Below are positions 3,948-54,160 of a DNA stretch of 59,796 bases, piece after piece. The notes beneath the pieces are model-generated. The model saw only the letters and a list, made by a program, of their open reading frames with translations, searched no databases and was not told the DNA's origin. Every line of letters begins with the position of its first letter. The stretch's first letter is position 1. Made by a program: the position numbers and the translations under genes. Source of the stretch: a virus (lineage: Duplodnaviria > Caudoviricetes); the IMG/VR virus record IMGVR_UViG_3300036773_000041, positions 1 through 59,796 of that record; one strand, 5' to 3'.

Positions 3948-3960
3948 GGAGCACATCCGT

Positions 3961-4452: not shown

Positions 4453-4457
4453 GGAGA

Positions 4458-4703
4458 TTGCGCCGCGCTTATCAGGCCAAGCCCGGGTCACGCGAATACG
4501 TCGACCCGGCCACTGCGGCTATGGAACGGCAGTACCGGTACCGGCAGATCGTGCCGATGACCTGGGATCAGTACTTGGACGAGCCGCCCACGGTCGTGGA
4601 GTGGACGCTGCGCATCCACCAGATCCGGGAGGAGGCGCAGCATGCCCGTTCTCGGCCTCAAGGAACTGACGGCGGCCCTGCACAAGGTCAGCGCGGAAGC
4701 TGA
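4458..4703 (+). CDS. Tail assembly chaperone extension (gpT-like)
   Basis: Lies in the -1 frame of the previous gene and is open across its stop; WDQYLDEP motif. Confidence 0.55.
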   Translation: MRRAYQAKPGSREYVDPATAAMERQYRYRQIVPMTWDQYLDEPPTVVEWTLRIHQIREEAQHARSRPQGTDGGPAQGQRGS

Positions 4704-5052
4704 CCTCGCCGCCCGGGCGACGGTCCTGGACGCGGCGAAGCTGCTGGAGACGGCGGCGAAACACAACTTCGGCGGCGCCCACAAGAAGGGCGAGCCGCAC
4801 GTCCCGGCGTTCCAGAACGGGCACCCGATCCCGAACGTCGTCACCGGCACGTTGCGGCGTTCGATCCGCCATGACCCGCTGACCCGGTACGGGCTCGGCG
4901 AGTGGGGCACCCGCGTCGGCCCGTCGACCGCGTATTCGCGGCGGGTCGAGCTCGAGTACGGGTACGCGTTCTTCACCCCCGCCGCGGAGGGGATCGCGTC
5001 GAAGCTGCCGGAGATCGGCGCCGCGCACTGGCGGAAATTCCTGAAGCTCTGA
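4642..5052 (+). CDS. HK97 gp10-like tail completion protein
   Basis: VLGLKEL...PNVVTGTLRRSI...YSRRVELEYGYAFFTPA pattern. Confidence 0.75.
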   Translation: MPVLGLKELTAALHKVSAEADLAARATVLDAAKLLETAAKHNFGGAHKKGEPHVPAFQNGHPIPNVVTGTLRRSIRHDPLTRYGLGEWGTRVGPSTAYSRRVELEYGYAFFTPAAEGIASKLPEIGAAHWRKFLKL

Positions 5053-5070
5053 GCCCGGAAGGGGGCCGTC

Positions 5071-7986
5071 GTGTCGACCATGCTGCCCCCTCTGATCCAA
5101 GAGATGCGCGCCCGCTACGGATCCGTCTACGCGGAGAACGCGAAGGTCGAAGCGTCGAACGCGAAGATGGCGGCCGGCGCTGAGACGTCGACCGGCCGGG
5201 CCGGGCGGGCGTTCAACAAGACCGCTGCGGTCGGGAAGGCCGCGTTCCTCGGCATCGCCACCGGCGCGGTCGCCGTCGGGTACGAGTCGGTCAAGATGGC
5301 GTCGAAGTTCCAGTCGTCGATGACGCTGCTGCAGACCGCCGGCGGGGAGTCCGCGGCGAACATGAAGACCGTCTCCAACGGCGTGCTGTCCCTGGCGTCG
5401 GCGACGGGTACCTCGACTGATCAGCTCGCTGAGGGCATGTACACGATCGAGAAGGCCGGGATCCGTGGCGCCGACGGCCTGAAGGTGCTCCGCGCGGCGG
5501 CGGAGGGCGCGAAGGCGGAGAACGTCGACCTCGGCACCGCCACGAACGCGCTGACGTCGATCATGATGAGCTACCACATGTCGGCCACCCAGGCGACGTC
5601 GGCGGAGAACATGCTGATCGCCGGGGCTGGTATGGCGAAGACGTCGATGCAGTCCTACGCCGGGTCGCTCGCGTCGGTGCTGCCGGTTGCGTCGGCGGCC
5701 GGGATCTCGTTCGCGCAGGTCGGTGGCGCGATCGCCACCCTCACCCAGCACGGCACCTCGGCGGAGGAAGCCACGCAGGAACTCGCGAACACCATCCGCT
5801 CCCTGCAGGCCCCCAACCAGGTCGCTATGAAGGCGATGCAGCAGCTCGGCCTCAACGTCACCGACGTGTCGAAGAACCTCGGTAAGCGTGGCCTGACCGG
5901 CACGATCGACCTGGTCACCAACGCGATCAAGGCGAAGATGGGGCCGTCCGGGCTGGTCGTGGTCGACACGTTCAAGAAGTCGCAGGCCGCCGCGGCGGAC
6001 GCCCAGACCGAACTGTCGAAGATGCCTACGTCGCTGCAGCAGATCGCGAAGGGCTACCTCGACGGCACCGTCACCCAGACGAAGTGGCGCTCCGAGCTCA
6101 AGGGCATGAGCGTGGAGCAGCGGCAACTCGCGCAGCAGTTCGCCGGCACCGTCAACCAGTCCCGCGGCTTCAACGACCTCCTCAAGTCCGGGTCGCCTGC
6201 CGCGCAGACGTTCGCCGGCCAGCTGAACAAGGTCATGGGCGGCGCGACCGGCATGAACACCGCGCTCATGCTCGGCGGGGAAAACATGACCTACTTCAAG
6301 AAGGCGACCGCCGAGGTGGGTGCTGCCGGGCAGAAGACCGGCAAGGACGTGTCGTCGTGGGCGCAAACCCAGAAGAACCTGTCGGTGCAGCTCGCGCAGG
6401 CCAAGCAGGCCATCGAAGTGATCTCGATCCGCATCGGCACGTGGCTGATCCCGAAGGTGTCCGCCGCGTTGAAGATCGGCGCGTCGTGGATCACGTGGCT
6501 CGGTAAGCACAAGACGGTCGCGCTCGCCCTGGCCGGGGTGATCGGCGGGGCGCTGGTGCTGGCGATCACCGCGTGGATCGCGAAGATGGCCATCGCCGGC
6601 GCCACCTCGGTCATCAACTTCGTGAAGATGATCGCCCTCGGTCAGAAGTTCGCCGCCACCCAGGAGGCGTCGTTCTCCCGCGGCGCGGCCGCGGCGATCC
6701 GGTGGGTCGCGATCCAAACCGCATCCCTCGCGAAGGCGCTCGTGAAGGGCGCGATCTGGGCCGCCACCTCCATCGCCGAAGCCGTCAGCGTGGCGGCCGC
6801 GAACATCGCCTCAGCCGCCTCCACAGCCGCCGCGTGGGTCGCCGCGAACGCCGTGATGCTCCTCGCCGGCGGCGCGATCCTGCTGCTCCTCGCGGCGCTG
6901 GCGTTCGGCGCCTACGAACTGTTCAAGCACTGGTCCACGGTGTGGAACGGGATCAAGCGGATCGTCGGTGACGTCGTCGGGTTCGTGAAGAACCACCTGA
7001 CGCTGATCCTCACGTTCCTCCTCGGCCCCCTCGGCACCGCGATCGGTGTGATCGTCAAGCACTGGACGGGTTTCACCCAAGGCATCGCCGCCGCCACGAA
7101 GTGGGTGTGGTCGGTGATCAAACCGGTGTTCGACGCGATCGTGAAGGTCGGGCTGTGGATGCTCCGCGCCGACATCCTCGCCCTGGAAACGGTGTGGCGG
7201 GCGGTGTGGGGCGCGGTCACGGCGACCGCCCGCGGCACGTGGGCGGTGCTGCGCCCGATCTTTTCCGCGATCGTCACCGCCGGGCTGTGGCTGATCCGCA
7301 GGGAGGTCACGATCCTGCGGGACACGTGGCGCGCGATCTGGACAGCGATCGCGGTCACCACCCGCACCGCGTACAACGTCATCTCGACGATCTTCGGCTG
7401 GTTCGGTAAATATCTGTTCAAGCCGCTGCAGACCGCCGCGCAGGGCCTGTACAACTTTTTCCACACGATCTTCGGGTGGATCGCTGACGTCGTGCGGGCC
7501 TGCTGGAACGTCATCAAGCCGATCGTCGACGCGATCACCAAAGCCATCGACGCGGTCGCCAACGGCGTCGGCAAGGTCGGCGGGGTCCTCAAGAAGATCG
7601 GCGGCGCGGCAGGGAAGGTCGCCGGCTGGATGGGGTTCGAAGACGGCGGCATCGTCCCCGGCGGGAAGGGCTCGCCGATGCTCGCAATCGTCCACGGCGG
7701 CGAGTATGTGGTGTCGAACGCGATGCAAGCCGGCACCCAGCCGATCGCTAACAACGTCCTCAAGAACGTGTTCATGACCAGCGGCGGCGGCGGAGCCGGA
7801 GGAGGTCTCACCCCGGGCGGCGCCACCGCAGCCATGTCCGGCGGCGGCAGCGGCGACGTGTATGTGCAGGTCACGGTGCAGGGCAACGTCACCGCCGAGC
7901 GCGACCTGACGAAGTCGATCCAGGCGCAGCTTCTGCAGATGGGCACGTTCCGGTCGCAGACCTACCAGCCTTACCGGCGGTCATGA
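5071..7986 (+). CDS. Tape measure protein
   Basis: 971 aa, Ala-rich helical, TP901-type core, periodic Trp/Phe repeats, FEDGGIVPG...VHGGEYVV C-terminal motif. Confidence 0.93.
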   Translation: MSTMLPPLIQEMRARYGSVYAENAKVEASNAKMAAGAETSTGRAGRAFNKTAAVGKAAFLGIATGAVAVGYESVKMASKFQSSMTLLQTAGGESAANMKTVSNGVLSLASATGTSTDQLAEGMYTIEKAGIRGADGLKVLRAAAEGAKAENVDLGTATNALTSIMMSYHMSATQATSAENMLIAGAGMAKTSMQSYAGSLASVLPVASAAGISFAQVGGAIATLTQHGTSAEEATQELANTIRSLQAPNQVAMKAMQQLGLNVTDVSKNLGKRGLTGTIDLVTNAIKAKMGPSGLVVVDTFKKSQAAAADAQTELSKMPTSLQQIAKGYLDGTVTQTKWRSELKGMSVEQRQLAQQFAGTVNQSRGFNDLLKSGSPAAQTFAGQLNKVMGGATGMNTALMLGGENMTYFKKATAEVGAAGQKTGKDVSSWAQTQKNLSVQLAQAKQAIEVISIRIGTWLIPKVSAALKIGASWITWLGKHKTVALALAGVIGGALVLAITAWIAKMAIAGATSVINFVKMIALGQKFAATQEASFSRGAAAAIRWVAIQTASLAKALVKGAIWAATSIAEAVSVAAANIASAASTAAAWVAANAVMLLAGGAILLLLAALAFGAYELFKHWSTVWNGIKRIVGDVVGFVKNHLTLILTFLLGPLGTAIGVIVKHWTGFTQGIAAATKWVWSVIKPVFDAIVKVGLWMLRADILALETVWRAVWGAVTATARGTWAVLRPIFSAIVTAGLWLIRREVTILRDTWRAIWTAIAVTTRTAYNVISTIFGWFGKYLFKPLQTAAQGLYNFFHTIFGWIADVVRACWNVIKPIVDAITKAIDAVANGVGKVGGVLKKIGGAAGKVAGWMGFEDGGIVPGGKGSPMLAIVHGGEYVVSNAMQAGTQPIANNVLKNVFMTSGGGGAGGGLTPGGATAAMSGGGSGDVYVQVTVQGNVTAERDLTKSIQAQLLQMGTFRSQTYQPYRRS

Positions 7987-21959: not shown

Positions 21960-22168
21960 GCGGGGACTGCGGGGACACGGACGCCCGAGCAGGCCTGACA
22001 CCGCCCGACGCCACCCGAGCAACCCCCCGTATTTCCGGGGCTGCGCCGTTCCGGTCCAGCGTTCATGGGAGATTTCAGCGGGTTCGATTCCCGCCACCTC
22101 CACCGCTTTAGGTCCCATAATCCAGGGACTCTAGCACGGGCCCGGCCCTCGCGGGAACACGCGGGGAC
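21960..22168. other. attP site: core plus arm-type integrase repeats
   Basis: GCGGGGAC at 21960, 21969 and 22161, and GCGGGAAC at 22151, flank the core; adjacent to the integrase. Confidence 0.75.
22078..22104 (+). other. att core: 3' fragment of tmRNA (ssrA) or tRNA-Ala
   Basis: GCGGG-TTCGATT-CCCGC T-arm followed by CACCTCC-A-CC acceptor strand with U70 and discriminator A; no 5' half present. Confidence 0.85.
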
Positions 22169-22193
22169 TGGGCCCCGGCTATGCTGTCCCCCG

Positions 22194-23465
22194 ATGGCAA
22201 GCGTGGAGAAGCGAGAGAACAAGACGACAGGCCCGTCGTGGCGGGTGATCTGGCGTGAGAACGGGGACCGTCAGACCGAGCTGTTCCTCAGCGCGGAGGA
22301 GGCCGACCGGTTCCGTAACCTCGTCGAAGGGTCCGGCAACCAGTGGCCCCACGGATGGGTGAAAGGCCACGGGTTCACCGGCGCCGCGAAGACCGGCGCC
22401 GGGCTCACGTTCCGCGACTGGGCCGAGCAGGCGGTCACGCTCCGGACGAAGGCCACCGGCCGCACCCGGGCCGACTACCGCCGCGACCTCCGCCGCCACG
22501 TCTACCCGCACCTCGGGGCGCTACCGGTCGACGGCGTCACCGCCCGGGACGCCGTCAACTGGCTCGACAAGATGGTCGCCGCCGAGCTGGCCCCGAAGAC
22601 GATCTCCAACATCCACGGCCTCGTCTCCTCGATCATCGCCGACGGCATGTCACACCGCCCCCCGGTCTGCGACCACAACCCGTTCGCGTCCCGGCTCAAC
22701 GCACGGCCGGAGGTGCGGGTCGAGGAGATGGTGTTCCTCACCCCAGACGAGTTCGAGCTGTTCTACCGGCACATCCCGGCTTTCTACAAAGCGCTCACGC
22801 TGCTGCTGTGGGCGACCGGGCTGCGCTACGGGGAGGCGACCGCGCTGCGGGTCGGGGACCTGGTCCTCGACGGCAAGCGCCGCACCCTGACCGTGGTCCG
22901 GGCGTGGAAACGGCAAGACGGCGGCACCTACGAGATCGGTGAACCGAAGACGCGCCGCTCCAGGCGCACCCTGCCGCTGTCGCCGAAGCTCGCCGCCGCG
23001 CTGCGTCCGCTCGTGCGGGGCCGTCAGGCCGACGCCTACGTGTTCCCGGCCAAGGAGGGTGGGCAGCTGCTCAACTCGACGTTCCACGACGCGGCGTGGG
23101 TGCCTGCAGTCCGCCGTGCCCGCGTCTGCGACGAGCACCACGACGAGCAACGCAAGGCGTTCGACGAGGCCCGCGCCGCCCGGTCCGCTGCGCAGCGCGG
23201 CACTGGCCGGCGGATCCGGTTCGTGCCGGCGCCGTGCGCCTGCGAAGGGACGCTGACGAAGGAACCCCGGGTCCATGACATGCGGCATTCCCACGCGTCG
23301 CAGCTGATCGCCGAAGGGCTGCCGCTGCCGGTAATCTCCCGCCGGCTGGGCCACGCCTCGATCCAGGTGACGATCGACCGGTACGGGCACATGATGCCCG
23401 AGCTCGACGACGCGGTGAACGCCGCCGTCGACCGGGGCCTCGCCTGGCTGGACGAGGACGTTTAG
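22194..23465 (+). CDS. int: Tyrosine integrase
   Basis: TGLRYGE (R), PKT (K), HDMRH, RLGH and RY catalytic motifs; arm-binding N-terminus; TATGCT 8 nt before ATG suggests a leaderless transcript. Confidence 0.95.
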   Translation: MASVEKRENKTTGPSWRVIWRENGDRQTELFLSAEEADRFRNLVEGSGNQWPHGWVKGHGFTGAAKTGAGLTFRDWAEQAVTLRTKATGRTRADYRRDLRRHVYPHLGALPVDGVTARDAVNWLDKMVAAELAPKTISNIHGLVSSIIADGMSHRPPVCDHNPFASRLNARPEVRVEEMVFLTPDEFELFYRHIPAFYKALTLLLWATGLRYGEATALRVGDLVLDGKRRTLTVVRAWKRQDGGTYEIGEPKTRRSRRTLPLSPKLAAALRPLVRGRQADAYVFPAKEGGQLLNSTFHDAAWVPAVRRARVCDEHHDEQRKAFDEARAARSAAQRGTGRRIRFVPAPCACEGTLTKEPRVHDMRHSHASQLIAEGLPLPVISRRLGHASIQVTIDRYGHMMPELDDAVNAAVDRGLAWLDEDV

Positions 23466-28126: not shown

Positions 28127-29037
28127 CCGGGCGTCTGATCCGCCACCCGCGGTACGCCCCGGGCAGCCCCGACTGGCATGCGCAGCGGGCGCTCGCGGTG
28201 GGCGGCAGCGAGATCGCCGCTGTCCTCGGCGTGTCCCCGTGGGAGTCGCGTTTCTCCCTGTGGCACAAGAAGAAAGGCCTCGTCGACCCCAACCTCACCG
28301 ACACCGAGCAGCTGTACTGGGGTCGGATGCACGAGCCGACGATCGCCGCGCGGTTCGCTGCTGACCACCCGGAGTGGAAGGTGAAACGGACCGGCACGTT
28401 CACCCCGTCGGGGCGGCCGTTCCAGATCGTGTCGCCGGACCGGGACGTGCAGATCGAGCGGGGCACGCATCGTCCGGTCGAGATCAAAACGTCCCGGGAC
28501 GACGTCGGCTGGGGCACCCCAGGCACCGACGAGGTTCCGATTTATTACCGGGTGCAGGGCATTTGGCAGGCCGACGCGCTCGGCGCGGACCGCTGCTACT
28601 TCGGGGTGCTGTTCGCCGGCTCCGAATACCAGGAGTACGTCGTGCCCTACGACCGCAGCGAGGCGACCATCCTGCTCGACGCGGCCGCCGAGTTCGTGCA
28701 GACGCTCAAGCGGGACGAGCGCCCCGACATCGACGAGCACGGCGCCACCTACCAGGTGGTGCGCGAGTTGCATCCCGAGATCGACGGCACCGACTACCAG
28801 GTCGGCGCCGACCTCGCCCGCCGTTTCTGCCTCGCGAAGGAAGCCGCCAAGGCCGCCGACGCCGAATCGCAGTACGCCACCTCGCTGATCGCTGACGCGA
28901 TGGGCAACGCCCGCCGAGCCATGTTCGGCGACGTCCGTCTCGGCACCCGCCAGTCCAAGTCCGGTGGGCTGCCCTACCTCCAGTCCGCCAAGGCCGACTC
29001 GCTGCCGGCTTTCCCGACCACGAATCGAGCCGCATGA
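28123..29037 (+). CDS. YqaJ/lambda-exonuclease-like recombination nuclease (RecE-like)
   Basis: W...VGGSEIAAVLGVSPW, WGRMHEP, SPD, VEIKT and YYRVQ motifs. Confidence 0.92.
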   Translation: MTGRLIRHPRYAPGSPDWHAQRALAVGGSEIAAVLGVSPWESRFSLWHKKKGLVDPNLTDTEQLYWGRMHEPTIAARFAADHPEWKVKRTGTFTPSGRPFQIVSPDRDVQIERGTHRPVEIKTSRDDVGWGTPGTDEVPIYYRVQGIWQADALGADRCYFGVLFAGSEYQEYVVPYDRSEATILLDAAAEFVQTLKRDERPDIDEHGATYQVVRELHPEIDGTDYQVGADLARRFCLAKEAAKAADAESQYATSLIADAMGNARRAMFGDVRLGTRQSKSGGLPYLQSAKADSLPAFPTTNRAA

Positions 29038-29321
29038 TGACCCACGCCCCCCACCGTCTCTTCTGCTGCTACCTCGACACAGCGGCCCAGGCCGAGATTG
29101 CCTCCTGGCAGCCGTTGGACGCATCCGCCTCCGACGCAGAGCATCAGCGCCGCCACGACCGTGTCCGCGAGCTCACCTGCCAGGACGTGGGCGACATCTT
29201 CGAACTGATCGATGGACCCTCCCCGGACGACTACACCCACAGTTGCCGCACCCACCTCGGCGTGATGGTCAGCGACGAGAACACCACCGCCGTAAACCTG
29301 CGCCAGGCGGCGCAGTCATGA
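29034..29321 (+). CDS. Hypothetical protein
   Basis: Overlaps both flanking genes by ATGA. Confidence 0.5.
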   Translation: MMTHAPHRLFCCYLDTAAQAEIASWQPLDASASDAEHQRRHDRVRELTCQDVGDIFELIDGPSPDDYTHSCRTHLGVMVSDENTTAVNLRQAAQS

Positions 29322-30505
29322 CCGACACCACGACCACCGACCCCGGGAAGGCTGTCGCGCGACGCGAGACTGGCCCCGAGGCGCTGATCCGGCAGTACAG
29401 CGACGACTTCGCGACCGTCCTCCCATCGCACATCAAGGCCGCCACGTGGGTGCGGGTCGCGCAGGGCGCGCTCAAGAAGGGCAAGAAGACCAAGGTCCGC
29501 AACGCCAAGGGCGACTACGTCGAGGTGTTCGAGCTCGAACTCGCGGCGCACAACAACCCGGCCGCGTTCGTGTCCGCGCTGCTGGACGCCGCCCGGCAGG
29601 GCCTCGAGCCTGGCACGGAGCAGTACTACCTCACCCCCCGCAAGGTGGGTAGCCAGCTGGAGATCCTCGGCATGCGCGGTTATCAAGGCGAAGTCGAGCT
29701 CATGTACAGGGCCGGCGCCGTGTCCTCGGTGATCGTCGAGGTCGTCCGCGACCGCGACACGTTCATCTGGACGCCGGGCAAGATCGACCACCACCAGCCG
29801 CCTCGGTGGCAGGGCCCGATGGAGCGGCCGTACCACGAGGTCGACTGGTTCGGCGAGGACCGCGGCGACCTCCGCGGCGTCTACGCCTACGCGGTGATGA
29901 AGGACGGCGCGACCTCCCGCGTCGTCATCCTCAACCGCCGCGACATCGACCGGATCAAGTCGTTCGCGCAGGGCACGAAGTCGGAGTACTCGCCGTGGAA
30001 CACGAGCGAGGAGTCGATGTGGCTCAAGTCGGGCGCGCACCAGCTCCGCAAGTGGGTGCCCACGAGCGCCGAATACATCACCACGCAGGTCCGCGCGGTC
30101 CGGGAGGGCAACACCCCGGACCCGGTGTCGGTCGCGCCGCTGCGTGTCCAGCAGGACATGCCCGACGTGAACCCCGACCTGAACGGCGACACCTTCATCG
30201 CGCCGGACACCGTCGACGCCGAGGTCGTCCCCGACGACGAACCCCCAGCCGACGACACGCCGCCGCCTGAGCCGGGCCCGGAGATGGCCAGCAAAGTGCA
30301 GGTCGCGAAGCTGAACGCCACCCTCAACGGGTACGGCATCCGCGAGCGTGAACGTCGCCTCGCCGTGATCAGCCAGGTCCTCGACCGGGCTGTCGAGTCG
30401 CAGGAAACCCTCACCAAGCAGGAAGCGTCGACGGTCATCGACACCCTGGAGCAGATCCAGGGCGGCCGCGAGGCGTTCGAGGCGATCTTCGGCGGCGGGT
30501 CATGA
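29318..30505 (+). CDS. recT: RecT-family ssDNA annealing protein
   Basis: GLEPG...YYLTP...GYQGEVELMYRAG...YAYAVMKDG...SPW...MWLKS. Confidence 0.92.
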   Translation: MTDTTTTDPGKAVARRETGPEALIRQYSDDFATVLPSHIKAATWVRVAQGALKKGKKTKVRNAKGDYVEVFELELAAHNNPAAFVSALLDAARQGLEPGTEQYYLTPRKVGSQLEILGMRGYQGEVELMYRAGAVSSVIVEVVRDRDTFIWTPGKIDHHQPPRWQGPMERPYHEVDWFGEDRGDLRGVYAYAVMKDGATSRVVILNRRDIDRIKSFAQGTKSEYSPWNTSEESMWLKSGAHQLRKWVPTSAEYITTQVRAVREGNTPDPVSVAPLRVQQDMPDVNPDLNGDTFIAPDTVDAEVVPDDEPPADDTPPPEPGPEMASKVQVAKLNATLNGYGIRERERRLAVISQVLDRAVESQETLTKQEASTVIDTLEQIQGGREAFEAIFGGGS

Positions 30506-30945
30506 CCGGCCCGGAGCACATCGGCGAGGCGGAGCGGCTGCTGAACCTCGTCGAGACGTGCGACGAGGCGTCGGTGAAGGAGTGGGGTGCGCTGAACCTG
30601 GCCGCCGCGCAGGTCCACGCGACCCTCGCCCAGGTCTCGTACCTGCGCGAGATCGGCGACCAGCTCGACACGCTGCCGCGCCCTCGGACCGTCCCGCTCA
30701 GCGCGGCACGGCGGCCGGTCACGATCGACCGATCCGCGCGCGCTGAGGCCGCCAAGCTGTTGGAGTCGATGGCGATCGGCGACGACGGTGAGGAGCGGCA
30801 GCGGACCGTCGACCGGCTCGTCGCGAACACGCACCTGAACGCACGCGACATCGCTCACGAAGCCCTCGCCATGGCCCTCATCCCCGAGAGGGTCATCGCG
30901 GTGCTGGACGCGATGAAGGTGCTCGGGCTGGACGGTGCGCTGTGA
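30502..30945 (+). CDS. Hypothetical protein
   Basis: MTGPEHIGEAERLL...AQVHATLA; shares a domain with 33844..34221. Confidence 0.65.
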   Translation: MTGPEHIGEAERLLNLVETCDEASVKEWGALNLAAAQVHATLAQVSYLREIGDQLDTLPRPRTVPLSAARRPVTIDRSARAEAAKLLESMAIGDDGEERQRTVDRLVANTHLNARDIAHEALAMALIPERVIAVLDAMKVLGLDGAL

Positions 30946-31780: not shown

Positions 31781-32043
31781 TGGGGAAGGACTACGCGCCG
31801 AAGTTTTGCCGGACCCGTCGGTGCACGCTGCGGTTCGGGCACGAGGAGAACTGCAACCTCCCGCAGCGGGTCGCCGTGCCGTGGCCCGGCAAGACCCCGG
31901 TCGCGCACGGCGTCACGGTGTTCTACCGACCGCGTAAGAGCCCCCGCATGCGGCACGGTACGGACCCGACGCCGCGCCGCTCCGCCGTGCTGCGCGTGGT
32001 CAACGGCGAGCAGCGCCGCCGCGCTGCGGAGCGCCAGTCATGA
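31777..32043 (+). CDS. Hypothetical protein
   Basis: Coupled; C...CTLRFGHEENC. Confidence 0.5.
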   Translation: MMGKDYAPKFCRTRRCTLRFGHEENCNLPQRVAVPWPGKTPVAHGVTVFYRPRKSPRMRHGTDPTPRRSAVLRVVNGEQRRRAAERQS

Positions 32044-32585
32044 CCGCGCCTGAGGTCAACGTGACCGAGTGGATGAACGGTGAGGTCCGCGCTGCCGTAC
32101 CGGAGAGTGGGCCGTTCGTCCCGGCAGAGTTGGCCATCAAGATCGTTGATCGGCTGGAGCGCTCCGACCCGGAGCAGTTCGCAGCGTGGCTGCGGCAGAA
32201 CGCAGTCGTGCTGCTGACCGATCAGATCGGTCGCATGCTGCGGTCCGAACGTGCCACGGCGCGTGCATCTGCTGGCCCGAGCGCGTTCGCCGAGTGGGCC
32301 GACAAGTCCGGCGCGGATGGCTCGCTGCCGTCTCCTGCGCTGCGGCTATGGAATCAGCGGCAGTGCGTGAACGACGCGAACGAGTGGAAACGCGAGTTCG
32401 AGCTCACCAAGCCTGACGCTCTCCACATCGCCAGCAGGGAGGAGACGCGCGGCCGAGCGGCTCTTATGCAAGGGGCGTTCTACAAGGCCGTCGCCAAGAA
32501 GGTTCCCAACGGCCAGACGATCGCCGACGTGTTCACCCCCGAGACCTACCAGGCCATGCGCGACTCAATCGTCGGCGGCGCCTGA
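32040..32585 (+). CDS. Uncharacterised protein, candidate accessory of the RAMP/array module
   Basis: 181-aa helical ORF with coupled start; ends 6 nt before the array. Confidence 0.7.
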   Translation: MTAPEVNVTEWMNGEVRAAVPESGPFVPAELAIKIVDRLERSDPEQFAAWLRQNAVVLLTDQIGRMLRSERATARASAGPSAFAEWADKSGADGSLPSPALRLWNQRQCVNDANEWKREFELTKPDALHIASREETRGRAALMQGAFYKAVAKKVPNGQTIADVFTPETYQAMRDSIVGGA

Positions 32586-32591
32586 TGCACA

Positions 32592-32885
32592 CGACTTCCC
32601 CCCCCAGCCCCCGTCTGCCCGGCACCCCTCCGCCCACACCCGACCACCCAGCCCACTCCACCGCTGCACCCGTCACGCCACTCCGTCCCGACAACCCGGC
32701 CCACCCCAGAGCTACTCCCTCCCCGCCTTTCCGACCGCCCAACCCAGCCTTCCCCAGCCCGACCCTGCCCCGCTCTGGCCGACTACCCCCCGCCCGCCCC
32801 ACCCGAATCGCGCCCAGCCGCCCCAGCCCGCTCCGACAGCCCATCCCTCCCCTGACCCATCCATCCCTGCCCTTCCCCACCCGAC
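32592..32885. repeat. Array of six ~48-nt CGAC-delimited units made of 5-nt NN-(C)CC modules (candidate guide-RNA array)
   Basis: CGAC at 32592, 32641, 32689, 32732, 32780, 32834 and 32882; the fifth base is C in 47 of 48 pentamers. Confidence 0.85.
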
Positions 32886-32903
32886 TAGCCGAAGGAATGA
32901 GTC

Positions 32904-33614
32904 ATGACTGATAGCCCGTTCGCGAAGTTCACCGAGAAGGCGTGGCCCCACCGATTCGAAGGCACGCTCACCGTCCCGACCCTGGTCGGTGGCATCCCGA
33001 CTGACCCGAACGTGGCTGAGGCGTGGCTGCGGTCGAAGCTCGCCGACAGCGACGACCTCATCCGCGCGCAGGTCGCCGAGACCATGACGGAACGCGGCGT
33101 CGGCGTCGACGAAGCGACCGAGATCGTCAACGCGAACAAGCACCTCAACGGCTTCAAACGCGACCAGGCCCGTGGCGGCGAGTTGTACATCGAGGGCCGC
33201 CAGTTGAAGGCCGCGCTCAAGGAGGCCGCATCGGTCGCCGTCGCGGCCGGGAAGCTCGACGCCCGCGGCTGGGGCAAGACGAACAAGGGCCTGCTCGGCT
33301 TCCTCGCCGAGCACGTCAGCGTCACCGAAGACCGCATCTACCTCGGGGTGACCAAACCGACCGGCATCCTCCAACGGTTCGTCCACACGTTCCGCGGCTC
33401 CGGCATCCAATACGAGGAGTACGTCGAGGACGCCGAGATCACGTTCACCGTCCGCTCTGACTGGCCATTCACCGACGAGCAGTGGGCGATGATCTGGCTG
33501 ACCGGCCAGGAGCAAGGTATCGGCGCGTCCAGGTCGCAGGGCTACGGCCGCTACACCGTCACCCGCTGGGAGCAGACGACCGGCGGTAAACGTCGAGTGT
33601 CGAGGGTCGCCTGA
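32904..33614 (+). CDS. Stand-alone RAMP superfamily (Cas7/Csm3-like) protein
   Basis: GAAGGA RBS; N-terminal strand then GG; LYIEGRQLKAALKEAA (cf. RAMP P-x-IPGSSLKGALR); C-terminal G-rich loop GIGASRSQGYGRY. Confidence 0.8.
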   Translation: MTDSPFAKFTEKAWPHRFEGTLTVPTLVGGIPTDPNVAEAWLRSKLADSDDLIRAQVAETMTERGVGVDEATEIVNANKHLNGFKRDQARGGELYIEGRQLKAALKEAASVAVAAGKLDARGWGKTNKGLLGFLAEHVSVTEDRIYLGVTKPTGILQRFVHTFRGSGIQYEEYVEDAEITFTVRSDWPFTDEQWAMIWLTGQEQGIGASRSQGYGRYTVTRWEQTTGGKRRVSRVA

Positions 33615-33847
33615 TGAGCGCCCCGCAGCAGGTGCAGCAGCCGGTGCCGACCCCGGTCGACCTCGCCACCGGCACCGTGCAAACCCCGGGCGGTCCGCTC
33701 GTCAACATCGTCGTCGCGACCGTCGTCGGGCAGATCGTCGTGTGGCTGCCGCCGGACAAGGCGAAGGCGTGGGCCGCGGCGATCGAACGTGAAGCCAGCC
33801 AAGCCCAAACGGGATTGCTGCTACCGCCGGGGGTGAACGGCCGATGA
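33614..33847 (+). CDS. Hypothetical protein
   Basis: TGATG coupling. Confidence 0.55.
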   Translation: MSAPQQVQQPVPTPVDLATGTVQTPGGPLVNIVVATVVGQIVVWLPPDKAKAWAAAIEREASQAQTGLLLPPGVNGR

Positions 33848-34221
33848 CCTACCCCGCCGTGCGGTTCCCGAGCAAGCCGCCAGCCGACTACGTCCAGTGC
33901 GCCGGCACGACGCAGACCGAGCATCAGTGCCGGCGCGGCGCCCGCCTCGGCAGCCAGTACTGCCCCCAGCACGCCCCCGGAATGACCGACCGGGAAGCCG
34001 CCGAAATGTTGGAGCGGATGGCGATCGGCGGCGACGGCGCCGCCCGGGACCGCACGATCGACCGGCTCATCACCCGCTCCCACCTCCACGGCGTGGAGAT
34101 CGCTCGGGAGGCGCTGCGCGTGTCCCGGCTCCGCCACGAACGGGTCAAGACCGCGATCCAGCGCCTGGACCTCGACGCCGCGTTCCGGAGCGCGCCGGCC
34201 ACCCCGTCGGATCCGCCGTGA
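33844..34221 (+). CDS. Zn-finger protein
   Basis: CAGTT...QCRR...YCPQH plus a domain shared with 30502..30945. Confidence 0.6.
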   Translation: MTYPAVRFPSKPPADYVQCAGTTQTEHQCRRGARLGSQYCPQHAPGMTDREAAEMLERMAIGGDGAARDRTIDRLITRSHLHGVEIAREALRVSRLRHERVKTAIQRLDLDAAFRSAPATPSDPP

Positions 34222-43766: not shown

Positions 43767-43831
43767 CCGAACTTCGCGCGCAGTGCGCGACCCCGTCCCG
43801 TCCCGTCCCGTCCCGTCCCGTCCCGACCCGA
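43700..43831 (+). repeat. CGAAC iteron-like repeats and (CCCGT)6(CCCGA)2 microsatellite; candidate origin
   Basis: CGAAC at 43700, 43734, 43745, 43757 and 43768; pentamer run 43792-43831. Confidence 0.7.
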
Positions 43832-43946
43832 CCACAAGAACTCCCTTCACTCACCATCCACACCAACGACGAGAACCAGCACACGCGAGCGACCGTCGGT
43901 GGATAGAAGCCCACCCCATGACCCACATCCGAAGGGACACCACCAC

Positions 43947-44882
43947 ATGACCCCACAGCCCGACTGGCGGAAAGCCGCCCGCTCGAACGGCTCCAGCGCC
44001 TGCGTCGAGGTCGCGTTCCCGCCCGACGGCACCGTCGCGGTGCGTGATTCGAAGGACCCGTCCGGGCCGGTGCTGACGTTCACCGCGGCGGAGTGGGATG
44101 CGTTCGCGGCTGGCATGGCCGGCGGGGAGTTCACCCGCCCGGGTGCTGCTCGCGCTGCTGTGGCGGCGGGGCGTGGGCCTCAGCCGGGGGACTTCGTCGA
44201 GTTCACGGCGTCGTGGGATGGCCTCAACCGGATCACCGCGAGGGTGGTGGAGGTGTTTCTGCGGCCGTCGGTGGTGTTGTCGCCGCCGGGGCGGTTCCTG
44301 AATGGGCAGTGGACTGGCACGTGGACGCCGGCGCCGGTCGAGCAGCACGAGCACATCTACAACGACGCCAGCCCCTACGTCTGCGGCCGCTGCTGGACGT
44401 TCGACGAGGAAGGCGCACTGGCCGAGATCGAGCGGCTACGAGCTGAGCGGCAGGCCGCGCTCGACATGTGCGACCGCTACGTCCAGTACGGCCCCGCGCC
44501 ATCCGGTCTGTTCGCGACCGAACACGAGCCGCCCAGGGGCACCATCGTCGCCTCCGCCGGCAACAGCCCATGGCACCGCACCCACCCCACCGACCGCGGC
44601 TGGCGGCTGCTGAGGTCCGGCCTCGGCGGGCAGGGTGACCTGATCCGCTGCGAGACATGGGCGAATGTCCTCGACCTCGCCGGCGGCCCGCTCGCGATCC
44701 TCCGCTGGGGATGGGGCACCGACGACGACGACCCGTTCAAGGCTGAGATTGATCGCACCGACGAGCAGATCCGTCTCGCCACCCGCCCCACGGTGCGCGT
44801 GCACGTTGACGATGATCTGACCGCCGCCGTCACCCAGGTCCTCAACGACCAGGCCAAGCGCGGGAGGCCGCATCGTGTCTGA
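43947..44882 (+). CDS. DUF397-domain protein with a long C-terminal extension
   Basis: GAAGGGA RBS; WRKAARS...CVEVA...VAVRDSKDP...LTFTAAEWDAF. Confidence 0.8.
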   Translation: MTPQPDWRKAARSNGSSACVEVAFPPDGTVAVRDSKDPSGPVLTFTAAEWDAFAAGMAGGEFTRPGAARAAVAAGRGPQPGDFVEFTASWDGLNRITARVVEVFLRPSVVLSPPGRFLNGQWTGTWTPAPVEQHEHIYNDASPYVCGRCWTFDEEGALAEIERLRAERQAALDMCDRYVQYGPAPSGLFATEHEPPRGTIVASAGNSPWHRTHPTDRGWRLLRSGLGGQGDLIRCETWANVLDLAGGPLAILRWGWGTDDDDPFKAEIDRTDEQIRLATRPTVRVHVDDDLTAAVTQVLNDQAKRGRPHRV

Positions 44883-48832: not shown

Positions 48833-48908
48833 CGCCCGGTAGGGGAGTTCGGCTGTCCCCGCCGCCCTCATACAGCGGAGATCGCAGGTTCGAATCCTGC
48901 CCGGGCTA
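48833..48908 (+). tRNA. tRNA with CAT anticodon (Met/fMet-like), CCA not encoded
   Basis: Cloverleaf: acceptor CGCCCGG/CCGGGCT, D stem GGGG/CCCC, anticodon arm CCGCC-CTCATAC-AGCGG, T arm GCAGG-TTCGAAT-CCTGC. Confidence 0.85.
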
Positions 48909-49070
48909 CTGTCCCCGCGCCCCGTGCGGGCATCCGCCGAGTGACCCCCATACGCGCTGTGGAAGAACGGCTGCAACGGGGCTGCGCCCATGGCGGCGGG
49001 TGAACTCCCGCAACCTGTGGAAGGTCGGGACGCGGGGACTCCAACCAACCGACGAGGGGAGGCGCACACC

Positions 49071-50158: not shown

Positions 50159-51793
50159 ATGACGGCCTCCCTCGACTGGGTCGAACACGCAGCCCGATCG
50201 TTCGAACCCGGCGGCACCACCCGGATCGCGCAGTGGGACACCCCCGGTGACCTCGCCCGGGCGGTCAACCCGCACACGGTGCAGACACCGGCGTTGGACC
50301 TGATCGACCGCGAGCTCGTGCAGGCGTGGAACACCCCGGACGCGCGGCTGATCATCTCGATGCCGCCGCAGGAGGGGAAGTCCGAGCGGGTCACGAAGAC
50401 CGGGAACCTGTGGGCACTGACCCGCAACCCGGACACCCGCATCGCGATCGCCTCCTACGCCCAGTCGTTGGCGGAGGGGTTCGGCCGGGAGATCCGCAAC
50501 TGGATCACCACGAACAACGGCGACGACGACACCCTCGACCTCGGCCTGGCGATCGCCCGCGACAACGGCGCCGCCCGACGCTGGCAACTCTCCGGCCACC
50601 GCGGCGGCGTCATCTGCGTCGGCATCGGATCCGGGTTCACCGGCCGCCCCGCCGACGCGCTGGTCATCGACGACCCGTTCGCCGACGCCGAGCAAGCCGA
50701 CTCCGAGTACTACCGCGACCGCGTCTGGGAATGGTGGCAGGCCGTCTCCGGGCCGCGTCTCGCCCCCGGCGCGCCGGTCATCGTGATCCTGACCCGCTGG
50801 CATGAGGACGACCTCGCCGGCCGCCTCCAAGCCGCCGAGGACGGCCACGTGTGGCGGGTCCTGAACATCCCCGCCCAGGCCGACCACAAACCCGACGAAG
50901 GCCAGACCGACCCGCTCGGCCGTGAGCCGGGGCAGTGGCTGCAATCGGCGCGGCGGCGCAGCCGTGAGCAGTGGGAAGCGATCCGGATCCGGTCCGGGTC
51001 CCGCGTGTTCAACGCCCTCTACCAAGGCCACCCGTCACCGGACTCCGGGAACGTGTGGAAACGGCCGTGGTGGCGCCGCTACCGCACGATGCTGTGGACG
51101 CAGCACCCCAACGACCCCGCCGCGTACCTCGTCCACGACATGGACGAGGTCATCCAGTCCTGGGACATGACGTTCAAGGACACCAAAGGCAGCGACTTCG
51201 TCTCCGCCACCGTCTGGGCCCGCCGCGGCGCCGAAGTGTTCCTCCTCGACAAGATCCACAAGCGGCTCACGTTCACCGACACCCTCGCCGCGTTCCGTGC
51301 CCTGACCGCGAAATGGCCGCAGGCGACCGCGAAACTCGTCGAGGACAAAGCCAACGGCACCGCCGTGATCAACATGCTGCAGTCGGAGATCGGCGGCATC
51401 GTGCCGGTCAACCCGACCGAATCGAAATACGCCCGCGCGAACGCCGTGTCACCGTTCATCGAGGCCGGCAACGTGTACCTCCCCGACGACGAGATCGCGT
51501 TGCCGGGCGTCGACGTCGACTCACTGATCGACGAGGCCGCGGCGTTCCCGAACGCCGCCCACGACGACGAGGTCGACTCGACCTCCCAAGCGCTGGCGAG
51601 GCTGCTCTTGGACGGCACAGGCGCACAGGCCTGGATGGAGTACCTCAAGCGGCTCGCTGCCGGCGAGCCCGCACCCGGCAACCAACCCGCTGCGCCACCG
51701 GCCGTCGAGCCGGCCGCCGAACCCGATCCCGACGACGGGTTGAGCCCGCTGCAGCGGGCCCGCAACGAAGCGTTCCGCGCCAACTACCGGTAA
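50159..51793 (+). CDS. terL: Terminase large subunit
   Basis: MPPQEGKS Walker A, IDDP Walker B, TRWHEDD, SWD, EDKANG and HDDEVDS motifs. Confidence 0.96.
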   Translation: MTASLDWVEHAARSFEPGGTTRIAQWDTPGDLARAVNPHTVQTPALDLIDRELVQAWNTPDARLIISMPPQEGKSERVTKTGNLWALTRNPDTRIAIASYAQSLAEGFGREIRNWITTNNGDDDTLDLGLAIARDNGAARRWQLSGHRGGVICVGIGSGFTGRPADALVIDDPFADAEQADSEYYRDRVWEWWQAVSGPRLAPGAPVIVILTRWHEDDLAGRLQAAEDGHVWRVLNIPAQADHKPDEGQTDPLGREPGQWLQSARRRSREQWEAIRIRSGSRVFNALYQGHPSPDSGNVWKRPWWRRYRTMLWTQHPNDPAAYLVHDMDEVIQSWDMTFKDTKGSDFVSATVWARRGAEVFLLDKIHKRLTFTDTLAAFRALTAKWPQATAKLVEDKANGTAVINMLQSEIGGIVPVNPTESKYARANAVSPFIEAGNVYLPDDEIALPGVDVDSLIDEAAAFPNAAHDDEVDSTSQALARLLLDGTGAQAWMEYLKRLAAGEPAPGNQPAAPPAVEPAAEPDPDDGLSPLQRARNEAFRANYR

Positions 51794-51814: not shown

Positions 51815-54160
51815 ATGGGTGTGGTCTCCCGCCTCCGGAAGGTCTTCGGACCTCCAGCCTCGGCAGCGATCCAGGCGTCTGAGCAGACGCAGGGCATGAC
51901 CCCGGACCGGGCGTTCTCCCCCGGGGAGCCGATCGGCCCCTACGACGGGTACTCGACCACCCCGCGTAGCCGTGACTTCGTCACCGGCTACAACATCGCC
52001 GCCCGTCCGCGCCGCAACGAGCGGGTGTCGTTCGAGACGCTCCGGGGCCTGGTCGACGCCTACGACGTCGCGCAGATGTGCATCTGGCACCGCATCGACT
52101 CGATCCGTTCGTTGAAGTGGTCCCTCGTCGCCGGCGACAGCGTCGAGGGTGACGTCACCGACGCCATCAAGATCGGTAAGGCGGCGCTCACGAAGCCGGA
52201 CCGGCGGATGCCGTTCAAGCCGTGGCTCGGGAAGTGGCTCTACGACATCCTCGCGTTCGACGCCGGCACCCTGTACCGGCTGCGGAACCGCGGCGGCCGG
52301 GCGATCGGGTTGAAGGTCGTCGACGGCACCAGCATCGCCCCGCTGCTGGATGCGTGGGGCGACTCACCGGAATCGCCGGCGCCGTCGTTCGTGCAGTTCG
52401 CGCAGGGCGTGCCGTGGGTGTGGCTCACCGAGGACGACCTGATCTACTCGCCGTTCCGGGCCACCAGCTCGACGCCGTATGGGAAGTCGCCGATCGAGAC
52501 GATCCTCCTCAACGCCAACACCGACCTGCGGTTCCAGTCGTACTTCCTGCAGCGGTTCACCGACGGCAACATCCCCGAGGCGTTCGCTTCCGCGCCCGAG
52601 ACGTGGACCGCCGACCAGGTGCAGCAATTCCAGCAGTACTGGGACACGTTCATGCTCGGCGACCAGGCCGCGAAGCATCAGGTGAAGTGGATCCCCGGCG
52701 GCGGCGGCATCGAATGGTCCAACGAGAAGGACTACAGCGACGCGTTCTCCCTGTTCCTGATGCGGAAGACGTGCGCCGCCTACCACGTCACCCCTGCGTC
52801 GCTCGGGTTCACCGACAACGTCAACCGCTCCAGCGGCGAGTCGCAGGCCGACGTGCAGGACACCGTCGGGGACCGGCCCCTGGCCGAGCACATCCAGGAC
52901 GTGCTGACCGCGTTCATCCATGACGACCTCGGCCTGCCGCTGAAGTTCGAGTTCGACCTCGGCGACGAGGAAGAGGACCGGCTCGCGACCGCCCAGTCCG
53001 ACGGCCACTACATCGACCGTGGCGTCGTGTCCTCGTCGGAGATCCGGCAGATGCGTTACGGCCTCCCCGAGCCGAACGGCGTGCCGGTGCCCCGCTACAT
53101 CTACACGCCGCGCGCCGGGGCGATCCCCCTGTCGGCGCTGTACGCGGTCGCCGGCCCGACCGACCCCGAGTCGGCCGCGCCCGCCCCGGGCGCTGAGCTG
53201 CCCCACAAGCCGTTCGCGCTGATCGAGGGTGTCGCCCCGCAGGAGCCGCCGAAGGCGCCCCCGCTCGCGGTCGTGCGCTACCCCGAGGACAACGCGCCGT
53301 CGGTGGCGGCTGCGGTCGCCACGCAGGACGATCCGGTTCTGAAAGAGTTGACCGCCGGCATCACGTCGGACACCGGCGTCACCTCCTACGACCTGATCGG
53401 CCGCGACGGCGAGGTCATCGACGACGGCGACCCCGACGAGGTCGCCAAGTCCGTCGAGCTGGCCGCGTACCGCCGGTTCGTGAAGGCCCGCGCGCGCGCC
53501 GGGAAGTGGCGCGACTTCACCTTCGCGTCGCTCGACCCGGTCACCGCGCACCGCCTCAACGACCAGGGCCGCGCCGCCGTGCGGAAGGACGCCGGGCAGA
53601 CCATCGCCGCCGGCCTCGCCGTGCAAGCGGTCGACACCGGCCGCGTCCTGATGCTGCAACGGGCCCTCGCCGACGGCGACCCGGCCGGCGGCTGCTGGGA
53701 GTTCCCCGGCGGCCACGTCGAGGACGGCGAGACCCCGGTCGCTGCGGCGCGCCGTGAGTGGCAGGAGGAGGTGGGCTGCCTCCTCCCCGAAGGCGACGTC
53801 ACCGGCCAGTGGGCCAGCGGCAACGGCATCTATGAGGGCTTCGTCCTCACCATCGCCGCCGAGCAGATGGTCGACATCCGCGACCGCGGGCAGGTCAACA
53901 ACCCCGACGACCCCGACGGCGACATCGTCGAGGCCATCGCATGGTGGGACCCGACCCAGCTCGTCGGCATGCCGGCGCTGCGCCCGGAGCTCGCGGGCGA
54001 CCTCGACGTGGTCCTCAACTCCGTCTCCCGCGCCATCGACGACACGGTCGCTGCCGCGCAGACGGCCGGGCTGGTCAAGGCGAGTGATGCCGACCCAAAA
54101 GCCCCAGCTGGCGTGACGGCCCCGGGCTTGTTCCGCAGCATCAATTCGACCTACCGCTGA
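51815..54160 (+). CDS. Portal protein with C-terminal NUDIX domain
   Basis: YGKSPIE...FTDGNIP portal motifs; Nudix box GGHVEDGETPVAAARREWQEEVG. Confidence 0.9.
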   Translation: MGVVSRLRKVFGPPASAAIQASEQTQGMTPDRAFSPGEPIGPYDGYSTTPRSRDFVTGYNIAARPRRNERVSFETLRGLVDAYDVAQMCIWHRIDSIRSLKWSLVAGDSVEGDVTDAIKIGKAALTKPDRRMPFKPWLGKWLYDILAFDAGTLYRLRNRGGRAIGLKVVDGTSIAPLLDAWGDSPESPAPSFVQFAQGVPWVWLTEDDLIYSPFRATSSTPYGKSPIETILLNANTDLRFQSYFLQRFTDGNIPEAFASAPETWTADQVQQFQQYWDTFMLGDQAAKHQVKWIPGGGGIEWSNEKDYSDAFSLFLMRKTCAAYHVTPASLGFTDNVNRSSGESQADVQDTVGDRPLAEHIQDVLTAFIHDDLGLPLKFEFDLGDEEEDRLATAQSDGHYIDRGVVSSSEIRQMRYGLPEPNGVPVPRYIYTPRAGAIPLSALYAVAGPTDPESAAPAPGAELPHKPFALIEGVAPQEPPKAPPLAVVRYPEDNAPSVAAAVATQDDPVLKELTAGITSDTGVTSYDLIGRDGEVIDDGDPDEVAKSVELAAYRRFVKARARAGKWRDFTFASLDPVTAHRLNDQGRAAVRKDAGQTIAAGLAVQAVDTGRVLMLQRALADGDPAGGCWEFPGGHVEDGETPVAAARREWQEEVGCLLPEGDVTGQWASGNGIYEGFVLTIAAEQMVDIRDRGQVNNPDDPDGDIVEAIAWWDPTQLVGMPALRPELAGDLDVVLNSVSRAIDDTVAAAQTAGLVKASDADPKAPAGVTAPGLFRSINSTYR

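Follow-up and report, generated by a model that had tools for sequence, protein, structure and literature searches.

The phage record IMGVR_UViG_3300036773_000041 of IMG/VR, analyzed here over its whole length of 59,796 bp (the window), is a temperate siphovirus-like genome of soil metagenome origin with about 70% GC. Between two genes on its plus strand lies a gap of 318 nt, from the stop of the open reading frame (ORF) at 32040-32585 to the start of the ORF at 32904-33614, which is 56 to 60% C and 15 to 17% G and holds a tract of C-rich pentamers. We consider this tract as the candidate guide-RNA array of a VIPR-type system. VIPR systems combine guide RNAs, termed vrRNAs, with an accessory vap gene and with Vipr, an ancestral RAMP protein of about 20 kD encoded by the phage (10.64898/2026.04.26.720920); statements about published systems refer throughout to the available passages of that bioRxiv preprint and of its structural companion, the structure preprint (10.64898/2026.04.26.720927). 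The locus is laid out as follows.

32040..32585, + strand: accessory gene (vap-like), 181 aa, predicted all-helical; GC at third codon positions (GC3) 0.82; homologues in relatives
32592..32640, + strand: array unit 1, 49 nt, CGAC plus nine pentamers; begins 7 nt past the stop codon of the upstream gene
32641..32688, + strand: array unit 2, 48 nt
32689..32731, + strand: array unit 3, 43 nt
32732..32779, + strand: array unit 4, 48 nt; its internal CGAC at 32760 is an in-phase GACCC pentamer
32780..32833, + strand: array unit 5, 54 nt, degenerate; the pentamer phase slips within the unit
32834..32881, + strand: array unit 6, 48 nt, the cleanest; NN string AG AT TC TG CA AT TG TT CA
32882..32890, + strand: terminal boundary motif CGAC-TAGCC, which closes the array (n units, n+1 boundaries)
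32891..32896, + strand: Shine-Dalgarno-like GAAGGA of the RAMP gene, read from the sequence
32904..33614, + strand: Vipr-like RAMP gene, 236 aa, with a C-terminal glycine-rich loop GIGASRSQGYG; GC3 0.89; assigned from predicted fold and profile homology

Period and units of the tract

The original prediction, made from the letters of the tract, had described a two-level grammar of CGAC-delimited units of NN-(C)CC pentamers. On the plus strand, positions 32592-32885 contain 177 C, 44 G, 41 A, and 32 T (60% C; n = 294). Over the tract (32592-32890), C is autocorrelated at lag 5 (0.222, z = 3.95), a value reached by 0 of 5,000 dinucleotide-preserving shuffles, so that the autocorrelation test proposed with the prediction comes out significant; at lag 3 the autocorrelation of C is negative (-0.148). 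The top three lag-5 values among 200-nt windows of the 59.8-kb genome are those of the tract, and the other C-rich stretches of the genome (at 11.8 kb and 14.7 kb) lack the pentamer grammar. Fourier power at exactly period 5 is not elevated (1,277 of 2,000 shuffles as high) because the phase is reset at every boundary; the 5-nt period is local, within units. In the 50 complete pentamers, C occupies positions 1 to 5 in 20, 18, 34, 36, and 48 cases, the same gradient as in the earlier hand count (15, 17, 33, 38, and 47 of 48).

CGAC occurs eight times in 32592-32885, about 3-fold more often than expected (2.5), at spacings of 49, 48, 43, 28, 20, 54, and 48 nt. These spacings bear out the predicted unit lengths of 49, 48, 43, 48, 54, and 48 nt, and the merging of 28 and 20 nt into a single unit 4 is justified, since the CGAC at 32760 is part of an in-phase pentamer. 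The units had also been said not to be copies of each other, and in keeping with this, Tandem Repeats Finder reported no repeat in the tract and a repeat search returned only one 20-nt pair at 80%. Long direct repeats are likewise absent from 32500-32950, no dedicated CRISPR finder having been run genome-wide. The plus-strand RNA is predicted to be nearly unstructured (-38.2 kcal/mol for 318 nt, z = +1.86).

Array grammar and shared units in related phages

The 236-aa protein belongs to a large, unnamed RAMP family, with at least 1,874 proteins at an E value of ≤0.001 in one search and 759 clusters at 50% identity in another. Fourteen relatives in IMG/VR contigs share 46 to 72% identity with it, and all 12 of those contigs with upstream DNA carry a C-rich, G-poor tract directly 5′ of the homologous gene, 170 to 893 nt long and varying in 5-nt steps. 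In these 12 tracts and that of the window, lag-5 z scores range from 3.2 to 9.2; all 13 are positive at lag 10 (with z above 2 for 11 of them) and negative at lag 2, and 12 are negative at lag 3 (L012, +0.03). CGAC is in 3- to 5-fold excess in each related tract. In 10 of 14 loci it stands within 40 nt before the downstream gene start, right ahead of the purine-rich ribosome-binding stretch; none was found in those 40 nt in L006, L012, L013, and L014. After the last unit of each related locus come a ribosome-binding site and a start codon, with AGGAG-like sites in the same place, and in several loci a stop codon just upstream excludes an N-terminal extension of the RAMP gene. In 9 of the 12 related viral loci, the gene immediately 5′ of the array encodes an accessory homologue (28 to 39% identity).

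A set of 80 metagenome loci, which partly overlaps the viral contigs and was collected with the narrower of our two alignments of the window family (A1) rather than the diverse one (A4), gave a similar picture. Sixty of these loci extend 200 nt or more upstream: 45 of them satisfy a strict criterion for a C-rich tract, 11 fall just below it with the grammar present, and 4 have no tract, so that the grammar is found in 56 of 60 when those just under the threshold are counted. Elsewhere in the family the array may instead lie 5′ of the accessory gene or 3′ of the RAMP gene, and in Microcystis phage Mae-JY09 it lies only downstream of the RAMP gene. In the record so labeled (L018, PP395641), the region 3381-5183 is 73% GC and has adjacent accessory and RAMP genes, with a C-type array 3′ of the RAMP gene followed by a GC-rich hairpin.

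Boundaries number 157 in 14 related tracts, against 23.7 ± 4.7 in shuffles (about 6.6-fold). When 193 CGAC sites are used as anchors, C peaks every 5 nt on both sides, and the C of CGAC falls at position 5 of a pentamer; GAC is therefore a 3-nt insert between in-phase pentamers, and unit spacings should be of the form 5k+3. Of all CGAC spacings, 79 of 180 are of this type; under a stricter definition of a boundary (CGAC followed by a base other than C), 66 of 143 spacings are 5k+3 and another 37 are 5k+4 (chi-square 75.8, 4 degrees of freedom). Units start with the consensus C-CGAC-TACCC. Entropies at pentamer positions 1 to 5 are 1.99, 1.96, 1.67, 1.24, and 0.39 bits (384 pentamers from 56 in-phase units): positions 1 and 2 are close to maximal, and position 5 is C in 95% of cases. 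Tandem pentamers in which conserved positions alternate with a hypervariable NN, as in VIPR arrays, thus stand beside the RAMP gene, and the predicted grammar holds in the window and in related phages alike.

The C-rich tract could in principle encode a proline-rich protein: ORF 32585-32911 (108 aa) is open, starts in a TGATG overlap with the upstream stop codon, and ends 8 nt into the next gene. However, two of the three frames are open through composition alone, since stop codons need A, T, or G, and C is flat over codon positions (0.55, 0.55, and 0.58), whereas GC3 is 0.82 to 0.89 in the flanking genes. The original claim that the period is not codon-driven is also upheld by all 13 tracts, which show period 5 without period 3. 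CGAC spacings are uniform over frames (62, 64, and 54 modulo 3), boundary motifs occur in all three frames, and the negative lag 3 and the tract lengths stepping by 5 nt do not fit a coding sequence; nor do the identical grammar of arrays downstream of vipr or upstream of the accessory gene in other phages and the lack of a protein family match. We therefore regard the protein-coding reading as extremely unlikely. Gene callers would nonetheless label such arrays as proline-rich hypothetical proteins, as with the 108-aa ORF here, and so hide them; they can be recovered by a simple test for a period at lag 5 but not at lag 3, with boundaries spaced by 5k+3.

Whole units recur in the arrays of different phages. 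One unit is common to the arrays of L001, L007, and L008 at 88 to 93% identity, and further units are common to L003 and L007 and to L005 and L011. The shared units stand at different positions in their arrays, adjoining units are unrelated, and the similarity starts and ends at CGAC; the CGAC-bounded unit is therefore the unit of inheritance, as individual guides would be. The comparison of orthologous arrays proposed with the original prediction thus shows NN at near-maximal entropy, the last C near-constant, and units modular between phages.

This modularity also bears on two readings without guides. That the tract is a decaying, functionless pentanucleotide microsatellite would be in line with a perfect (CCCGT)6 elsewhere in the genome (within 43792-43823), since slippage of C-rich pentamers evidently does occur; it is hardly credible given that the tract stays beside the same gene at 46 to 72% protein identity, that its constant positions remain constant while NN is near-random, and that whole units are conserved between phages. 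Alternatively, Rho might load on the C-rich leader (a rut site), or the G-rich complement might form G-quadruplex DNA, and either would regulate the downstream gene without guides. Rut sites are unstructured stretches of RNA, rich in C and poor in G, that span about 80 nt or more and bring about Rho-dependent termination; the base composition of the tract and the very low predicted structure of its RNA agree with this, and the minus strand is a dense run of GGG-NN. This regulatory reading leaves unexplained the hypervariable NN beside a near-invariant C, the 5k+3 spacing, the units common to several phages, and the strict linkage to a Vipr-homologous RAMP gene, and we consider it very improbable as the whole account, although a Rho effect could coexist with a guide array as a side property.

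Separately, the segment 43788-43835 of the window consists of CGAC, the perfect (CCCGT)6, and two CCCGA-type pentamers, and sits in the intergenic region 43767-43898 before a gene at 43899-44882. It resembles either an isolated, low-complexity unit with the array grammar or a raw microsatellite of pentamers that could give rise to such units.

The RAMP protein and the probable assignment to VIPR

Pfam, PHROG, and NCBIfam gave no match for the 181-aa gene, the 236-aa gene, or the ORF spanning the tract. The C terminus of the 236-aa protein (GIGASRSQGYG) resembles the loop rich in glycine (G-loop) of RAMP proteins, and G205, G207, and R210 are invariant. An AF2 model has a long beta-hairpin (residues 154 to 185) and a helical insertion (35 to 77). 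Foldseek returned 39 PDB matches at an E value of ≤0.001 (best, 1.7e-5), and among the matches listed, all are chains of type III-A Csm, type VII, type IV-A, or Cas7-11/gRAMP complexes; in BFVD viral models, one match is named "Cas system-associated RAMP superfamily protein." A PDB sequence search with the RAMP alignment yielded nothing meaningful (best E value, 0.23). On the strength of the model, the protein is predicted to have a Cas7-type RAMP fold, that of a small RAMP protein comprising an RRM core, a thumb, and a glycine-rich loop.

Our reference for published VIPR is Escherichia phage SUSP1 (KT454805), whose system is VIPR type II (10.64898/2026.04.26.720920). Its 195-aa protein (28474-29061, minus strand) carries C173, D177, W178, R179, and R138, numbered as in the structure preprint (10.64898/2026.04.26.720927), and is therefore Vipr. 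In hhalign, the diverse profile of the window family (A4) matches a profile of 20 members of the SUSP1 Vipr family (A3) with a probability of 94% and an E value of 1.4e-7 over 130 columns, from helix 1 to the G-loop; the narrower profile A1 matches the SUSP1 family at 67% (E = 5.1e-5), and the comparison with the single SUSP1 sequence is not significant (E = 0.15). The 236-aa protein thus appears, at profile level, to be a homologue of SUSP1 Vipr. In this alignment, the published guanine contacts D177, W178, and R138 fall on A208, S209, and E171, R179 is retained as the invariant R210, and A208 is conserved in at least 90% of the window family.

The accessory protein was modeled as helical (AF2, pLDDT 79) with no PDB fold match at an E value of ≤0.001, and hhalign detected no similarity between the accessory proteins of the window locus and SUSP1. 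In a scan by sequence, locus neighbors are HNH, RecT, helicase, or unknown, with no match to CRISPR-associated families among the genes scanned; no other RAMP- or cas-like fold was seen in the single neighbor folded, the 181-aa upstream gene. The locus thus pairs a Vipr-like gene with one accessory gene, without a CRISPR array or other cas genes, as VIPR loci do.

VIPR was proposed in 2026 as a phage-borne relative, possibly an ancestor, of CRISPR effectors, and reads DNA with gaps. Its guides comprise 9 to 16 YNNGG pentamers, in which the constant GGY is sequestered by protein and the hypervariable NN pairs with DNA, every third target base being skipped (10.64898/2026.04.26.720920); one Vipr protomer binds each repeat (10.64898/2026.04.26.720927). 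Seven types are distinguished, with variant repeats NNNGG, YNNNG, and NNNNG; long intergenic regions are found in the loci, competing phages and satellites are the natural targets, and in "staggered" vrRNA arrays each guide ends where the following one begins (10.64898/2026.04.26.720920; staggered arrays, Fig. S18 legend). This description fits the present locus in its phage RAMP, single accessory gene, long intergenic region, putative pentamer guides with a constant part and a hypervariable NN, and compact array.

SUSP1 offers the closest parallel, with a small phage RAMP bearing a G-loop (the profile-level homologue), one accessory gene, pentamer guides with a constant part and two hypervariable bases, and guides on the same strand as the genes. 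It differs in several respects: its constant bases on the gene strand are GGY rather than CC(y); its guides have a structured 3′ tail of roughly 40 nt and a promoter each, whereas the units here are parted by GAC only; the window array is part of the operon, flanked by the accessory gene and vipr; A, S, and E align here with the guanine contacts D177, W178, and R138; and the accessory proteins have no detectable mutual similarity. The staggered compact arrays share with the window their head-to-tail pentamer runs and tiny out-of-phase punctuation. In L070 to L074 (Competibacteraceae, Dokdonella), runs of 7 to 13 CNNGG are punctuated by a 4-nt CAGG, giving a spacing of 5k+4, in contrast to the 3-nt GAC and 5k+3 spacing on a C-type repeat here; these loci are a G-type counterpart of the two-level grammar of the window. 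In one of them, L072, a very long compact array (3563-4253) ends in a hairpin and T-run on the gene strand and contains a degenerate G-rich stretch (3769-3875). Two actinobacterial SUSP1-type loci (L054, 3148-3640; L058, 2120-2450) have, past their YNNGG runs, tails with GGTTCGA(N)TCC hairpins like a tRNA T-arm, which suggests tRNA-like 3′ elements on these guide RNAs.

The Cas7 backbones of class 1 CRISPR systems (types I, III, IV, and VII) share the protein fold and the principle that each protomer covers a set number of guide nucleotides, with bases flipped by the thumb. The period of Cas7 on CRISPR RNA is 6 nt, whereas that of the tract is 5 nt and its guide information is non-contiguous; nor does the tract have the repeats of at least 20 nt with unique spacers of class 1 arrays, the element shared between units being only about 9 nt (C-CGAC-TACCC). 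TRAP reads (G/U)AG-NN repeats in the Bacillus trp leader, triplets with 2-nt spacers that make a 5-nt period. It is an analogy only, an oligomer on an RNA leader of 5-nt period whose spacers carry no information and whose protein is not a RAMP. TRAP-like ring binding was dropped, as were iterons or a replication origin, an immunoglobulin-switch-like recombination region, and a Shine-Dalgarno sponge RNA; none explains the link to a Vipr homologue.

Because grammar, linkage, fold, profile homology, the published description, the L070 to L074 analogue, and the modular units agree, we regard it as highly probable, by analogy with published VIPR, that the tract serves as guide-RNA array in a VIPR-type system encoded by the phage, together with the accessory gene and the Vipr-like RAMP gene. 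The analysis itself shows the grammar and its linkage to this gene family, a RAMP fold in the model, profile homology to SUSP1 Vipr, and modular units; guide function is suggested by homology and grammar together. Such a system would consist of the accessory gene (32040-32585), six guide units (32592-32881), a closing boundary (32882-32890), and the RAMP gene (32904-33614). Each unit would be a run of 8 to 10 N-N-y-C-C pentamers, with CC (often yCC) as the constant part gripped by RAMP protomers, one per pentamer, and the hypervariable NN as programmable letters that would recognize target DNA through gapped pairing. A competing phage would be the probable target and repression the probable effect; the GAC inserted at each boundary, the source of the 5k+3 spacing, is the likely processing or filament-end signal. 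Transcription, processing, binding of one protomer per pentamer, gapped DNA recognition, and an anti-phage role would here follow published type II.

The constant motif on the gene strand is yCC or CC rather than GGY (or NNNGG, YNNNG, or NNNNG), and we therefore class the locus as a variant. VIPR as a kind has been known since the 2026 preprints, and the window clade looks like a variant of it with a CC motif, GAC punctuation, short units, and an operon-embedded array. We propose tentatively, at slightly less than an even chance, that the family uses a second "alphabet," with CC(y) guides, a G-loop and thumb with other residues at the published guanine contacts, GAC-punctuated units of 5 to 10 pentamers within the operon, and unit-wise exchange between phages. 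A CC-type guide alphabet is not mentioned in the available passages of either preprint (10.64898/2026.04.26.720920, 10.64898/2026.04.26.720927). Literature searches found nothing relevant on C-rich pentanucleotide repeats in phages or on phage-encoded Cas7-like proteins, and no VIPR source beyond these two. CC-based guides, if real, would offer a natural comparison for how a RAMP recognizes the constant part of its guide and a natural specificity switch in its grip on the guide, enlarging the range of programmable DNA binders that could be designed; it would then also be common for high-GC soil phages to carry compact arrays that lie within the operon and have minimal punctuation.

Probable guide strand, target searches, and genome context

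We think it likely that the array is transcribed with the operon on the plus strand and that the constant motif of the RNA is CC, not the published GG. The SUSP1 locus has two genes on the minus strand with YNNGG runs on that same strand, one upstream and several downstream of the genes. Across 47 SUSP1-type genomic loci, which include actinobacteria of 67 to 70% GC, all 132 runs of at least five YNNGG lie on the vipr strand and none on the opposite strand (38 loci with runs, 9 without). In the window family, arrays are C-rich on the gene strand at all three positions (5′ of the accessory gene, between the genes, and 3′ of vipr) in 16 sources, and no G-type tract was found in the same 16. Moreover, the array takes up the stretch between the upstream stop codon and the ribosome-binding site, and expression of vipr would necessarily yield a C-rich plus-strand RNA. 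The replaced guanine contacts and the scarcity of predicted structure in the plus-strand RNA also favor this strand. Scans for promoters and terminators in the window, L009, and L002 gave nothing relevant, and a scan for a hairpin with T-run beside 106 arrays gave 0 on either strand; a TTGACT-18-TAAGGT read by hand before the downstream array of L009 fails the criteria of the promoter scan.

Several points weigh against the array as we read it. All repeat types named in the available passages are G-based (GGY/NN, NNNGG, YNNNG, NNNNG). Published guides have a 3′ constant element, and the minus strand here fits that arrangement, with (GGNNN)n then GGGTAGTCG. In locus L127, positions 1-175, at the contig edge and upstream of the accessory gene, are a G-rich, GTCG-punctuated, mirror-image tract on the vipr strand. 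Units contain 8 to 10 pentamers here (5 to 10 across the family), versus 9 to 16 in published type II. The AF2 model of the RAMP protein is only moderately confident (pLDDT 72.6; TM-scores to Cas7 chains of 0.33 to 0.46), and the alignment that maps the guanine-contact residues is of moderate confidence, with a one-residue gap in the G-loop. Sequencing runs that contain the window sequence amount to one soil-metagenome DNA run, with no RNA run among them. Finally, in a local target search with nine strict guides and skips of 0 to 3 (window, L001 to L014, and L018), counts equaled those of shuffled guides. In IMG/VR, the exact 1-nt-skip pattern had one match for unit 6, on a contig of 32% GC, and 10 near-identical matches for unit 4, in one lineage of 44 to 46% GC; with one independent match each, we judge both to be about chance level on a rough guess of the collection size.

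The vipr gene of L127 is apparently split over two frames (1010-1300 and 1334-1705).

The first three of these points are what one would expect if the same VIPR-type system made its guides from the minus strand, antisense to both genes, as (GGNNN)n with a short 3′ tail GGGUAGUCG, which would be the listed NNNGG type. The minus strand shows both the G-based repeat and a constant tail after it, and the L127 tract is oppositely oriented relative to vipr. We nevertheless consider antisense guides unlikely. The opposite strand reads GG and then mostly G, which fits only NNNGG, the loosest published variant, and only with antisense guides, and the published pocket for that third base excludes purines (10.64898/2026.04.26.720927). 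Guide runs in SUSP1-type loci are co-oriented with vipr without exception, and the orientation of the gene strand is uniform in the window family at all three array positions. The locus offers no noncoding space for a minus-strand promoter, and guides of this kind would be perfectly complementary to the obligatory sense leader. The guanine-contact residues are not conserved, and a G3N2 RNA would probably be prone to quadruplexes.

The unit-6 match lies at 6961-6986 of contig L019, where it overlaps an apparent start codon on the opposite strand. Six of the eight bases left unconstrained by the pattern also match pentamer position 3, making 24 of 26 contiguous matches, a post hoc observation; we treat the match as chance because the contig is 32% GC. 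Pairing at position 3 as well, if it occurs in the window clade, would set the decoding rule of that clade apart from the published rule. In composition, NN agrees best with codon positions 1 and 2, yet is nearly uniform and so not decisive.

The locus lies in a phage genome, as VIPR loci do; besides RecT, an HNH endonuclease, and a helicase/methylase, the record encodes the following.

50159-51793: large terminase
51815-54160: portal
5071-7986: tape measure
22065-23465: integrase

A DNA similarity search with 31900-33700 found no match in 50,697 phage records. Two small proteins flank the locus (30502-30945 and 33844-34221) and share a motif (MAIGDDGEERQRTVDRL... and MAIGGDGAARDRTIDRL..., respectively); they are paralogues. 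An Rfam scan detected only a tRNA (48833-48908), and the genome carries a tRNA-Met (CAT) gene at 48833-48909. The portal protein has a C-terminal NUDIX/MutT-like domain at about residues 586 to 716.

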